From the NCBI GenBank assembly GCA_035275405.1, contig DATEMU010000015.1:737768-801767 (forward strand): 64,000 nucleotides of DNA, read 5' to 3'. The notes below the pieces were generated by a model. The model made no database searches. It was not told where the DNA came from and saw nothing but the letters and a program-made list of their open reading frames with translations. Source of the DNA: Phycisphaerae bacterium (GTDB taxonomy: Bacteria > Planctomycetota > Phycisphaerae > UBA1845 > UTPLA1). The first letter of the stretch is position 1. Every line of letters begins with the position of its first letter. Shown in pieces: positions 35,523-43,385 of this stretch. A program made the translations under genes and the position numbers.

Positions 35523-38500
35523 TTATGAGGCGTTGGAATCCGCCGCTGCCCTGAGTACTTCCGCCAACTGACCGGCGTGGACCTGGTCGTTCGATTGGAA
35601 CCAGAATGTCAATTCCGCGCGGTCGCTTCCCCGTCTGCCGAATTCCTGTTGCATGCCGAGATGCTCGACCTGCGTCGGCGTGAACCGGCCGGGCGGCACT
35701 TGCAGATCGACGCGGAGGGCCTCGCCCTGGTGGGTGATGATGCGGCCGATCCGCTTATTATTATTCGTGGCGAGTTCAACGAAGACTTTGCCCGCATCCC
35801 AGTTGACCTTGAGCTTGGGCAGGGCCTTGGCCGCGCGGCCGAGGAACGCGATCAATTCCAGCGGGCGCCACAGTTTGTTCTGTGTCAGGGGGATTGATTT
35901 CTGCGACAGATGCCACGCCTTGGCGTCGGTTTTCCAAGGCGTCGCCTTCGATTCATCCCTGGCCAAGTTCGCTACACGGTGGAGATAGTTGACGAGGGCC
36001 CTGGCGAGGAATTCGCGGAATGCCGGCGTGGAAATTTCCTTCTTGTCGTGGACGAGGATGCGGACTTGATCCATGCCCTGCTGCGCCGGACGGATGCTCA
36101 CGCGGGCACGTTGGCCGTAGGCCTCGATGTCGTCGCGGTCGTCAAGCGTCTTGAGCGCGAGCCTGGACGCCAGCGTCTTCTCCGAGAACGTGCCATTCGG
36201 CACCCGGAAGATGACGTCGAGAAGCCAGCGGCCGCCGGTCAGGAAATGAGCCAGCCACGGTGTGGCGCTTTGAGCGAGACCGGGCGGCGCTTTCGCAGTG
36301 ATTTCCACGCGGGCGCGGTCGTTCCAGTCCGTCGGCAGAAGTCGGGCGCTGCCATTCCGCTCAAGGTAATCGACGATGAAAGTGAGCGCGGCACCTTCCC
36401 ACTCGACGGGTTTACCGTCGCGGCTCAGGCGGTCTTTTGTATGCCAGCGCAGGCCGTCGCGCTGCCAGGGCATCTTGATGGGCTCGTCCGCCACAAGGGG
36501 GGACGCTACAGCTGGAAGGGGGGACGCTACTGAGGCCTGGGCCAGCGCTGCGGCGGCCGCTTTCTTCGGGTCAAACACCGTGCGCGCCTGATGCGGCCCC
36601 GCCTTGAGGATCGGGCCGAGCAAGCGGCCGGTATGCGAGGCGGCGACTTTGGCGATGTCTTCGGGTGTTCCCTCAGCGACGATCCGGCCGCCCTCTTCGC
36701 CCGCCTCCGGGCCGAGATCGATCACCCAATCCGCGGTTTTGATGACATCGAAGTTGTGCTCGATGCAGATGACGGTGTTGCCGAGGTCGACGAGGCGGTG
36801 CAGGACGTCGAGGAGCTTGCGCAGGTCGTCGAAGTGCAGGCCCGTCGTCGGCTCGTCGAGGATGTAGATCGTCTTACCCGTCGAGGGGCGGCCCAGTTCC
36901 GCGGCGAGTTTCAGGCGCTGCGCCTCGCCGCCGGAGAGCGTGGGGGCGCTTTGACCGAGCGGGAGGTAACCGAGGCCGACGTCGTCGAGCGTTTGCAAAA
37001 GCCGCCGGACCTTCGGCACGTTGATGAAATGCGCGAGCGCCTCGCTGACCGGCATCTCCAGGATTTCGGCGATGTTCTTGCCCTTGTAACGCACGTCGAG
37101 CGTCTCGCGCTGATAGCGCTTGCCGCCGCAGGTTTCGCACGGCACCCACACATCCGGTAGGAAGTGCATCTCGTAGCAGACTTGCCCCAGCCCCTCGCAG
37201 TCGTCGCAGCGGCCGCCGGGACGGTTGAAGCTGAAGCGGTTGACGGTGTAGCCGCGAATCTTGCTGTCGGGCAGTTTGGCGAAGACCTCGCGGACCAGAT
37301 CGAAGACGCCGCTGTAGGTCGCCGGGCTGGAGAGCGGAGAGTTGCCAATGGGCTGCTGATCGACGTTGATGACCTTGTCGACGAAGTCGAGACCGCGGAT
37401 TTCGTCGTACGCGCCGGGCGTGAGTCGCGCGCGGTGGATGCGGGCGGCAAGGGCGGGATAGAGAATCTCCGTAATCAGCGACGATTTGCCGGAGCCGGAG
37501 ACGCCGGTGACACAGACGAAGCGGCTGAGAGGGAAGGCGGCGTCGATGCCTTGGAGGTTGTTCTGGCGTGCGCCGTGGACCACGAGTTGCCGCTCTTCAG
37601 CGTTCGCTGCCGCTTTCCGTCGGTTGGTCGGCACGGGGATGGCTGTTTTGCCGGAGAGATATTGCCCTGTCAGCGATTCGCTTTTCTTCTGGACCTGTTT
37701 TGGCGCGCCCTCGGCGACGACGTGGCCGCCATGGGCCCCCGCGCCGGGGCCGAAGTCGATCAGGTGGTCCGCCGAACCGATCACCTCTCGATCGTGCTCG
37801 ACCATCAAGAGCGTATTCCCCAAGTCGCGAAGGCGATGGAGCGCGGCGATGAGGCGGTCGTTGTCGCGCGGGTGGAGGCCAATCGTCGGCTCGTCGAGGA
37901 CATAGAGCACGCCGGTCAGGCCGCTGCCGATCTGCGAGGCGAGGCGTATGCGCTGCGACTCGCCGCCGGAAAGCGTGGGCGCGGCCCGGCCGAGGGAGAG
38001 GTAGCCGAGGCCGACGTCGAGAAGAAAGCGCAGGCGGGAGCGGATTTCGTGGAGGAGTTCGCCGGCGATCTTCGATTGTCGCCGGCCAAGTTTGAGGTTG
38101 GCGAAGTACTCCGCCGCGTCCGCTAGTGAAGCGGCGCAGATATCCGTGATGGTGCGGCCGGAAAGTCGCGCAGCAGCGGGTTCCGGTCGAATCCGCGCCC
38201 CGCCACAGGTCTGGCAGGGCACATCGGTCACCATTTCTTCCATTCCGTAGCGATATTGCCAGGAGATTCGCGTAGCTTCGTCGATGGCGGGGAAGAAGCC
38301 TTTCCATTGGAAGCGGAGCTGGCTTGGCGTAACCGCGCGTGAATTCTTGCGCCGCGCGGCTAATGGCGCGGCACTTGGCACGCCCTTGCGGGCGTGGTTC
38401 TGATCGGTGCGGCCCTGCTCTGCAACATCGATCCAGCGTTCCCCGAGGCCCCACAAAAGCGCGTGGCGGTGCGTGGCCGTCAACTTCGCAACGGGCGTAT

Positions 38501-41460: not shown

Positions 41461-43385
41461 TTTCGATTCCGGTTTCGCTCGTTGGTCCTCGAAATCGGCC
41501 GACGTTGCTTTGGTATCTCAATGGACTTGTGGCCTGCAAGGTACTGTCCAGTGAGTGACGCTTGGGACTTCATAATATCCGCGAAATCGCCTGCGGCGAC
41601 GATCTCCCCGCCGCGGACGCCGGGGCCGGGGCCGAAGTCGACGATGTGGTCCGCGGCGCGCATGGTCGCCTCGTCGTGCTCGACGACGATGACGGTGTTG
41701 CCCATGTCGCGGAGGGCCAGGAGGCTTTCCAGGAGCTTTTCGTTGTCGCGGGCGTGCAGGCCAATGGACGGCTCGTCCAAAACGTAAAGGACACCCACGA
41801 GGCCGGCGCCGATCTGGCCGGCGAGGCGGATGCGCTGCAACTCGCCGCCGGAGAGCGTGGGGGCGGTGCGGTCGAGCGTCAGGTATTCCAGGCCGACCTT
41901 GAGAAGGAAATCGATTCGCGTCCGCAGTTCCTTCAGCACTTCCTCGGCGACGATCTGCTGAACGGGTGTCAGTTTCAATTTCGCCAGCGTCGTTTGGGCG
42001 TCGGCGATGGACATCGCGCAGAGTTCGCAGATGTTCGGGCCAGGCGCGCGGCCATCCACCGGCAAGCGCACGCCCAGTGCCGCCGGGTTCAATCTTGCAC
42101 CGCGGCACTCTGGGCAATCGCCCCGGCGCATGAACTTCTCGTAATACTCGCGGACGAAGTTCGCCTTCGCCTTGCGATATTTGTCGCGCAATTCCTCGAT
42201 GACGCCCGCGAACGGCCCCCCGTGCTTCCACACGCCGCCGGACCAGCGCCATTCGTACGTGATGTGGCGGTCGCCGGTGCCGTACAAGAGCGCCGCCCGC
42301 GCTTTTTCCGGGAGTTCTTTCCATGGCTTGCGGATGTCGAAGCCGACGGTGCGGGCCACGGCGTCATAGATGTGCCGCCTCCAGCGACCGACCTTGGTCC
42401 GCATCGGTGCGACGCACGGCGCGTAGAACGGCAGTGACGGGTCGGGGATGAGCAGGTCGGGGTCGAAGTCCATCAACTCGCCCAGACCGTCGCATTTCAG
42501 GCACATGCCCTGGGGCGAGTTGAAAGAGAAGAGCTGCGGCGTCGGCGGTTCGAAGGAGATCGAGCAATTCGTGCAGGCGTATTTCGAGGAGAAGACTTTT
42601 TCGCCCGCGGTTCGCTTCCTCGGCTCACCGCTCAGGTCCGGCGAGATGATCAGTGTGCCCTCGCCTACGCGAAGTGCGCCTTCGACCGCTTCCGCCAGCC
42701 GTGAACGCACATTGGGGTCGACGATGAGCCGATCGATCACCACCTCGATGTCGTGCCGCTGGTTTTTGACAAGGGCGAGGTCCTGCCGGAGTTCGACGAT
42801 TTCGCCGTCCACGCGGGCGCGCACATATCCGGCGCGCATGAGATCGTCGAAGAGGTCGCGGAACTCGCCTTTCTGCCCGCGCGCGACGGGGGCGAGGACC
42901 AAAACTCGAGAGCCACTCGGCGCTCCCTTACGGTTGCGGCTCTGAGCGACGAACGCGGCGAGGATACCCGCGACGATTTGCTCGCGGGACTGCGCCGAGA
43001 TCGGCCGGCCGCACTTTGTACAATGCTGGGTACCAATCCGCGCGTAGAGCACGCGCAAAAAATCGTAGATCGCCGTGACCGTGCCGACGGTCGAGCGGGG
43101 GTTCCAGCCGGTCGATTTCTGCTCGATGGCGATGGAGGGGGAGAGCCCCGTGATCATGTCGCAATCGGGCTTTTCGAGCTGGCCCATGAACTGCCGCGCG
43201 TAAGACGAGAGCGATTCGATGTAGCGGCGCTGCCCCTCGGCGTAGAGCGTGTCGAAGGCCAGCGAACTCTTGCCGCTGCCGGAGACGCCGGTGAAGACGA
43301 TCAGCTTGTTCCTCGGCAGCGAGAGCGAGACCGAACGCAGGTTGTGAGCCCGCGCCCCCTTGATTTCGATTGTCGTGGGTTCCAT
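41457..43385 (-). CDS. uvrA: UvrA N-terminal half (ABC module I with UvrB-binding and insertion domains), stand-alone gene
   Basis: [66 protein letters not shown]...[34 protein letters not shown]...SLTGQYLAG, then a stop. Confidence 0.85.

Follow-up and report, generated by a model that had tools for sequence, protein, structure and literature searches.

The window analysed here, a 64,000-nucleotide (nt) stretch of a Phycisphaerae bacterium genome (contig DATEMU010000015.1, positions 737,768 to 801,767), carries a uvrA locus in which the first UvrA (UvrA1) is divided between two genes: one encodes only its N-terminal half (N-half), and a second, giant gene encodes its C-terminal half (C-half) fused to a complete second UvrA (UvrA2) and a C-terminal tail. 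We regard it as almost certain that this fission is real and conserved. With less confidence, but still as the likelier course, we propose a full mechanism in which the two products assemble in trans into an asymmetric UvrA1-UvrA2 pseudo-heterodimer and the two-gene cassette lying between the halves is a passenger. An earlier note, made from the letters of this stretch only, had offered three explanations, namely a genuine split UvrA, a UvrA2/resistance-like paralog system, and sequence or assembly error, and had proposed comparison with related genomes as a check. That comparison found the same boundaries and no misassembly, and the conservation across relatives favours the first of the three.

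Four head-to-tail open reading frames (ORFs) of 642, 73, 187 and 1716 aa are read on the minus strand from 43385 to 35523, neighbouring genes being joined by ATGA overlaps or by a 5-nt gap. The first (41457..43385) encodes the UvrA1 N-half, which comprises ATP-binding cassette (ABC) module I together with zinc modules and both the UvrB-binding and the insertion (DNA-binding) domain, and has a short basic tail at its end. Its TGA overlaps by 4 nt with the ATG of the 73-aa ORF (41239..41460), a small helical partner in the antitoxin position, whose TGA overlaps in the same way with the ATG of the 187-aa ORF (40679..41242), a toxin-like, MenT1-like minimal nucleotidyltransferase. The giant gene contains in turn the UvrA1 C-half (39594..40673; ABC module II with the C-terminal zinc module), a basic low-complexity linker (39501..39593), the complete UvrA2 (36603..39500; both ABC modules, UvrB-binding and insertion domains, three zinc modules) and the tail (35523..36602; about 360 aa and the stop codon), all on the minus strand; in the 1716-aa protein these parts occupy residues ~13-360, 361-391, 392-1357 and 1358-1716, respectively. 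The order of the ORFs, the restriction of the first to the N-terminal module, the matching C-half and full UvrA in the giant ORF and both 4-nt overlaps agree with the earlier description. The start and the tail of the giant gene are revised: the listed start, a TTG at 40880, falls within the 187-aa ORF, and the likely start is the ATG at 40673, 5 nt past the stop of that ORF, as deposited at NCBI, while the tail has about 360 aa and not ~395. The N-half is deposited as HKQ50565.1 and the giant protein as HKQ50562.1 ('excinuclease ABC subunit UvrA'), the source of the latter being an 826-kb contig of a Phycisphaerae metagenome-assembled genome (MAG). A promoter and terminator scan of 35000-44000 gave the same counts as shuffled sequence and is therefore uninformative on operon structure.

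To place the locus among its relatives, the tail-domain alignment was scanned over one genome per species, which gave 39 loci, nearly all of them labelled as Phycisphaerae or Planctomycetota MAGs; the segments of the window were mapped onto these loci (designated here by L numbers) and the ORFs were traced from stop to stop. Thirty loci had enough sequence to place the start of the giant ORF (L004, with one frame change, is counted among them). In every one of these the ORF starts at the C-half: it is preceded by in-frame stops and opens only 40-290 nt ahead of the C-half homology, which leaves no room for an N-half. In 29 of them it continues without interruption for ~1670-1930 codons, through the C-half, the linker and UvrA2 into the tail. 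For 16 loci a distinct ORF for the N-half was traced upstream, with the same orientation and mostly in a different frame. A protein search with the N-half returned about 90 clusters whose members (618-760 aa, 62-88% identity) consist of the N-half only; they come from several sequencing projects, on contigs of up to 5.9 Mb, and their named hits all belong to Phycisphaerae or Planctomycetota. Purifying selection is strong on the N-half and on the C-half, UvrA2 and tail of the giant gene. In a comparison of the window with L009, its closest relative, the ratio of nonsynonymous to synonymous substitution rates (dN/dS) amounts to 0.07 in both the N-half and UvrA2, 0.09 in the C-half and 0.13 in the tail. 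The C-half is the most conserved segment across the relatives, with 74-93% identity. One locus, L041 (JANQQE010000005.1), is labelled as an alphaproteobacterial MAG; its segment coordinates and identities are nearly those of the Phycisphaerae loci L035 and L036, and therefore it is probably mis-binned.

The cut runs between two intact modules. The N-half covers positions 4-609 of 943 in NF001503 and 2-609 of 924 in TIGR00630, with PF17760 (UvrB-binding) at 1.3e-30 and PF17755 (insertion/DNA-binding) at 1e-27, and UvrA2 covers positions 5-942 of 943 in NF001503, with the same two domains at 5.9e-29 and 8.2e-13. The TIGR00630 cut-off of 729.8 is exceeded by the N-half (753.7 bits) and by the giant protein (1766.6 bits); the NF001503 cut-off of 1147 is exceeded by the giant protein (1833.1 bits), the N-half alone falling below it (783.3 bits). 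When N-half and C-half are joined, they align with solved UvrA from end to end (1161 bits, 9gxk) with a 4-residue gap at the junction, and UvrA2 aligns with solved UvrA structures at 1076 bits. The N-half stops 12 residues past the conserved linker, and the C-half begins 13 residues ahead of the conserved KVPRQDWL; relative to the earlier note, this is a small correction, as these 12 further residues follow ...EIPKQRRP before the stop. An intein or trans-splicing was considered for this junction and rejected, since it contains no intein-sized insert. Walker A, signature and Walker B motifs (GVSGSGK[ST]S, LSGGE.QR and [LI]Y.LDEP..GLH) are intact in all four ABC modules, that is, in the N-terminal and C-terminal modules of both UvrA1 and UvrA2. 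The zinc modules are all present, and CxxC...CxxC pairs and PF17760 occur in both UvrA units.

Judged by these domains, both UvrA units are class-I-like, which speaks against the UvrA2/resistance-like option, because the UvrB-binding domain, absent from class II UvrAs, is present in both copies. According to PMC9328131, class IIa UvrAs have neither a UvrB-binding domain nor the first zinc finger. Like class II UvrAs (UvrA2 of D. radiodurans, DrrC, Ecm16), the UvrA2 of the window is a UvrA paralog besides a first UvrA unit; unlike them, it has both the UvrB-binding domain (PF17760, above) and the first zinc finger, and the neighbourhood of the locus is free of antibiotic biosynthesis genes. With canonical class I UvrA, a homodimer of ~940-aa subunits (TIGR00630/NF001503; 2r6f, 3pih, 3zqj, 9gxk), the likeness extends over the full length, as both units align end to end and each of them, UvrA1 when joined, has two ABC modules, three zinc modules and the UvrB-binding and insertion domains. 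However, class I UvrA is a single two-module polypeptide, whereas UvrA1 is here made from two genes, being cut at the inter-module linker with its module II fused to a non-identical UvrA, to which a 360-aa tail is added; moreover, the working unit proposed here is an asymmetric pseudo-heterodimer and not a symmetric homodimer.

Tandem UvrAs of 1600-1960 aa (for example NF001885/PRK00635, named 'excinuclease ABC subunit A', which we take to be the chlamydial UvrA) also hold two UvrA units in series, but in the window the first unit is cut, and the modules are partitioned 1+3 instead of four in one chain. The 1809-position tandem model NF001885, with a cut-off of 3054, was not reached by the two proteins of the locus (356.9 and 978.1 bits), and scores so far under the cut-off place them outside this equivalog. 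Two planctomycetal proteins from other metagenomic sequences, P0092 and P0093 (2334 and 2343 aa), were recovered by an exhaustive search with the C-half. They share the tail and the order UvrA1-UvrA2-tail, unlike the window form they are unsplit, with N-half, C-half, UvrA2 and tail contiguous, and their tail bears the same two P-W-x-x-D/G-G-x-x-W-H motifs. In the same search, more than 100 cluster representatives of 1600-1960 aa were tandem UvrA-UvrA proteins without the tail. Outside Phycisphaerae, the next-best matches of the N-half are pieces of at least 1000 aa in which N-half and C-half are contiguous (Gemmataceae, Pirellulales, Isosphaeraceae, Thermoguttaceae).

Considering the unsplit relatives of ~2340 aa and the common tandem UvrAs, the tandem UvrA1-UvrA2 fusion with tail is probably ancestral, and the fission, class-wide in Phycisphaerae, probably derived, as far as the distribution of sequences tells. 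The earlier note had described the C-half as further fused to a paralog after the split; the same unsplit and tandem proteins suggest that this was probably not the order of events. On the simplest reading, an ancestor of this Phycisphaerae clade already possessed a tandem UvrA1-UvrA2(-tail) gene, which would then have been severed between the two modules of UvrA1, at their linker. A locus from outside Phycisphaerae, L053 (8001-14435 of CAZBGC010000007.1), encodes UvrA1 and UvrA2 in one frame that is broken by a lone in-frame stop close to where UvrA2 begins, giving gene calls of 1082 and 1043 aa; the stop could be a sequencing error, a pseudogene mutation or a site of recoding. It was considered as a state with separate adjacent genes and was dropped, because the two UvrAs share one frame with that single stop.

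In most genomes the N-half and giant genes remain adjacent and on the same strand, but this arrangement is not obligatory. No giant gene lies within 8 kb downstream of the N-half in the complete Phycisphaerales chromosomes CP070827.1 and CP070691.1, and in about 12 loci with a giant gene no N-half lies within 3-6 kb upstream; the unlinked N-half and the unlinked giant gene were each seen in different genomes. In L036 a radical-SAM gene, divergently transcribed, is the upstream neighbour of the giant gene, whose product begins MTVATRTKKKKSK... immediately before the C-half. Evidently, N-half and giant protein are made as separate polypeptides, and the split is independent of operon layout. Programmed frameshifting or read-through joining the halves was also considered, since the ORFs overlap in different frames in L029, L030 and L042; as a general mechanism it is discarded, since in many genomes the halves are either unlinked or separated by 0.8-1.2 kb that other genes occupy. 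Immediately upstream of the unlinked N-half, on the same strand, both of these complete chromosomes (L050, 7291-7902, and L051, 7276-7962) carry a hypothetical gene of 203-228 aa, preceded by a divergent HIT-family gene; it is absent from the window and may be a conserved partner.

How could a UvrA in two pieces work? In solved UvrA structures, modules I and II of a protomer are arranged head to tail and together build both composite ATP sites, two protomers make up the damage-sensing dimer, and in many transporters separate ABC subunits dock together. As the composite ATP sites are formed from modules I and II, and the cut at the linker removes no structural element, docking of the N-half is to be expected. 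The free N-half would dock in trans on the N-terminal module II of the giant protein and so rebuild UvrA1, the flexible linker would hold the rebuilt UvrA1 beside UvrA2, and the rebuilt UvrA1 and the tethered UvrA2 would together replace the UvrA homodimer as an obligate asymmetric pseudo-heterodimer. Such a four-module complex would be asymmetric in having two differing UvrB-binding domains, two differing insertion domains and one tail that is possibly DNA-binding. We infer the trans assembly, the pseudo-heterodimer and a role in excision repair for the products of this locus.

Alternatively, the two products may act independently, the N-half as a self-dimerising single-module ABC protein that binds UvrB and DNA and the giant protein as a UvrA2 with an orphan or regulatory module, with no reconstitution of UvrA1. 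On the one hand, isolated ABC modules commonly homodimerise, and the unlinked genes of several genomes would suit such autonomy. On the other hand, the C-half retains all catalytic motifs and is, as given above, the best conserved part of the locus, which fits an active composite ATP site formed with a partner; the two halves align to solved UvrA with no element lost; and their genes stay together on one strand in most genomes. Independent action is accordingly considered unlikely.

The gap between the halves bears on the role of the cassette, which the earlier note had seen as an insertion splitting the gene. Among the relatives with adjacent halves, the same two-gene cassette fills the gap in L009, L017, L022, L023, L025 and L034, as in the window, and only the small ORF is found in L026. 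The gap is empty in L011, L021, L024, L029, L030, L042 and L052, where it measures 47-280 nt or the ORFs sometimes overlap. A 194-aa HUH transposase of the IS200/REP-associated type occupies it in L033 and L037, genes for a nucleotidyltransferase, a Nuc_deoxyrib_tr-like protein and a glyoxalase in L043, and genes for a nucleotidyltransferase and WapI in L047. Many relatives share the split without the cassette, with a different insert or with unlinked genes, so that the split can be explained without it. Conversely, in L004, L006 and L010 the cassette stays by the giant gene with the N-half not upstream, and in L050 a nucleotidyltransferase homologue is found 1.5 kb downstream of the unlinked N-half. 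The transposase genes lie at 5133-5717 in L033 and at 2404-2988 in L037, with the HUH motif NHVHVVV, and short tandem repeats flank the L037 copy; the extra cargo of L043 (6340-8116; Nuc_deoxyrib_tr-like and glyoxalase-family) and of L047 (7501-7950; WapI-family) belongs to more distant relatives.

Between the window and L009 the two nucleotidyltransferase copies are 46% identical with saturated synonymous sites, whereas the flanks are 89-93% identical, which points to allele replacement at the same site; L034, with flanks of 76-84% identity, has a 64% identical copy. Two nucleotidyltransferase allele types appear to be exchanged at one site. Pairwise identities of the family nevertheless track those of the flanks in part (Spearman 0.63-0.69 with the N-half of UvrA2 and the tail, computed on non-independent pairs). 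Taken together, the cassette is an ancient but dispensable and exchangeable resident of the gap.

As to what the cassette encodes, the 187-aa protein has 80 homologues in a family of ~190-aa proteins. Throughout this family G26, S27 and D43 do not vary, and D41 is nearly invariant, corresponding to the pol-beta nucleotidyltransferase motif (G-S...D-x-D). The family profile matches MenT1 (Rv0078A, 8an4) at E 1e-6 with the motif aligned, and a structure model of the window protein, with a predicted local distance difference test (pLDDT) of 95, has MenT1/MenAT1 as all of its top five PDB matches in Foldseek (best E 3.5e-7 with a template modelling (TM) score of 0.65; TM 0.61-0.65 for the five). 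Searches of Pfam and NCBIfam with the window protein gave nothing beyond a weak DUF6036 match at 0.023; AbiEii (PF08843, DUF1814) is unmatched by it and matched by one of 22 family members, at 0.0023, and DUF6036 by three of the 22. The 73-aa ORF has no match in Pfam, NCBIfam or PADLOC, and none to PF18993 even at E 10. It has homologues at the same position in L009, L017, L022, L023, L025, L026 and L034. A Chloroflexi homologue of the nucleotidyltransferase, 37% identical, follows a true Rv0078B (MenA1) family gene beside a VapBC pair; the 73-aa protein is ~15% identical to this Chloroflexi Rv0078B-family protein, and its likeness to the Rv0078B/MenA1 family is weak.

It has previously been shown that MenT1 modifies tRNA acceptor stems and that the 68-aa MenA1 neutralises it (PMC10435456). 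From the profile match, the modelled fold and the arrangement of the genes, we read the pair as a putative MenAT1-like toxin-antitoxin-type module. As in MenAT1 of M. tuberculosis (Rv0078B-Rv0078A), a nucleotidyltransferase of MenT1 size has a small overlapping ORF directly upstream, of 73 aa here and 68 aa in MenA1. Unlike in MenAT1, the window protein is only 17-19% identical to MenT1 and has no AbiEii/DUF1814 match, the 73-aa ORF has no Rv0078B-family match, and the pair is located inside a split DNA-repair operon, which is a new setting.

In the mechanism proposed here, a MenAT1-like passenger would have settled in a gap created by the fission, or creating it, and in this genome it would be co-transcribed and translationally coupled with the uvrA genes. 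The opposite view is that the cassette is functional in the system, by regulating or depending on the split UvrA, for example by coupling a growth-arrest toxin to a DNA-damage operon or by modifying a component, and that its insertion caused the fission. In its favour, every Phycisphaerae context that was examined places the nucleotidyltransferase family next to at least one of the two genes, N-half or giant (window, L004, L006, L009, L010, L017, L022, L023, L025, L034, L043, L047, L050), its divergence to 40-45% identity suggests an ancient resident, its identities partly follow the flanks as stated, and its starts overlap the preceding stops in most loci. Nevertheless, the cassette is missing from all the loci with an empty gap despite the same split, it is replaced by the transposase in two others and accompanied by extra cargo in L043 and L047, and L026 retains the small ORF only. 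Furthermore, the allele differs sharply between the closest relatives, the window and L009, and the Chloroflexi homologue resides in an ordinary toxin-antitoxin island. A functional cassette is for these reasons held to be improbable, and we infer that the cassette is a passenger.

That the whole arrangement is a sequencing or assembly error or a decaying pseudogene, hiding a normal uvrA and a separate paralog behind frameshifts or a chimeric join, is scarcely credible: the window does come from a MAG, and the long-read contigs L002, L003 and L054 show many frame changes in the same genes, but the same boundaries recur in ~30 independent and mostly short-read assemblies of different projects and in complete chromosomes, no Walker A, Walker B, signature or zinc motif is damaged, ATGA overlaps couple the cassette ORFs tightly, and the recurring ORF boundaries together with the purifying selection (dN/dS 0.07-0.13) exclude an artefact.

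Some considerations weigh against the proposed mechanism of trans assembly with a passenger cassette. The polarity of fusion and fission is read from distribution and not from a rooted tree, and the assembly of N-half and giant protein is reasoned from the known UvrA fold. The comparison covers the genes of the split locus and their surroundings. Finally, the nucleotidyltransferase family is remarkably frequent at this gap and is translationally coupled in most loci, which is awkward for a purely selfish passenger.

Both products of the locus are already public under a generic UvrA name, and tandem UvrAs are annotated. In the literature, no relevant account of a split or tandem UvrA in Planctomycetota, of a 'class III UvrA', of UvrA fission or of a 1+3 partition was found, many subscription papers lying outside the coverage. 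UvrA is among the best-studied DNA-damage sensors, and the division of labour among its protomers and four ATP sites is debated, partly because the homodimer is symmetric. With two non-identical units, one of them in two polypeptides, each module, UvrB-binding domain and ATP site becomes mutable independently, and if this is a natural asymmetric, trans-assembled UvrA, questions of protomer and ATP-site asymmetry are directly testable. The locus suggests that the covalent link between the ABC modules of UvrA is dispensable. It also offers a clean case of gene fission at a domain linker within a fused paralog pair, the gap having then served over a long time as a site for selfish cargo, of toxin-antitoxin type and of other kinds. 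As annotation pipelines label both products 'excinuclease ABC subunit UvrA', the architecture is hidden, and calls of pathway completeness in Planctomycetota can mislead. One may go further and propose that Phycisphaerae replaced the symmetric UvrA homodimer by an obligate, trans-assembled asymmetric machine, in which the supply of the N-half is a control point of repair and the gap is a heritable landing site for MenT-like modules, perhaps feeding back on the DNA-damage operon; this extended proposal is speculative, and we would not expect it to hold in full.

Two further parts of the giant protein deserve attention. The tail, which is peculiar to this planctomycetal lineage of UvrA, consists of two alpha+beta modules that each begin with a P-W-x-x-D-G-x-x-W-H motif; it has no family match in Pfam or NCBIfam, and its fold was compared against the PDB. 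PADLOC returned nothing for either the cassette or the tail, and an anti-phage defence system, considered for the locus, was rejected on that ground.

The linker between the UvrA1 C-half and UvrA2 is of low complexity, as the earlier note had said, but it is encoded by an inverted repeat that is translated in frame: two 31-nt arms of GCGAATR heptamers (39504-39534 and 39554-39584), 90% complementary, with a predicted RNA hairpin of -44.5 kcal/mol (z -5.1). The linkers of the relatives measure ~25-95 aa, vary in sequence, are rich in Lys, Arg and Ser and never contain a stop. L009 shares the heptamer linker (7130-7215), and a stretch of 34 nt in one arm is 100% identical. Between the window and L009, the proportion of synonymous differences (pS) in the 31 linker codons is 0.14, compared with 0.39-0.56 in the flanks, and dN/dS is ~1.4; in this small sample, the low pS and the high ratio hint that the DNA or RNA is constrained and the peptide is not. 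The GCGAATR heptamer run is common in high-GC metagenome contigs, with at least 120 stretches, some of them as hairpins. Flexible linkers of the giant protein seem to tolerate the in-frame insertion of genomic repeats. The linkers of L010, L013, L017, L018, L034, L039 and L040 are translations of other short DNA repeats (KSQNVKTSKSQN..., SELRIANS...LLATRNAEL), and so is an insertion in the tail of P0004.

Beyond the four genes, a second pair of toxin-antitoxin type lies directly 3' of the giant gene on the minus strand (34866-35433), where a 76-aa ORF overlaps a 131-aa PemK/MazF-family toxin (PF02452, 5.4e-15). Elsewhere in the window, the segment 22001-24000 has a GC content of 0.49-0.51, compared with ~0.62 in the remainder, and may be a foreign island.

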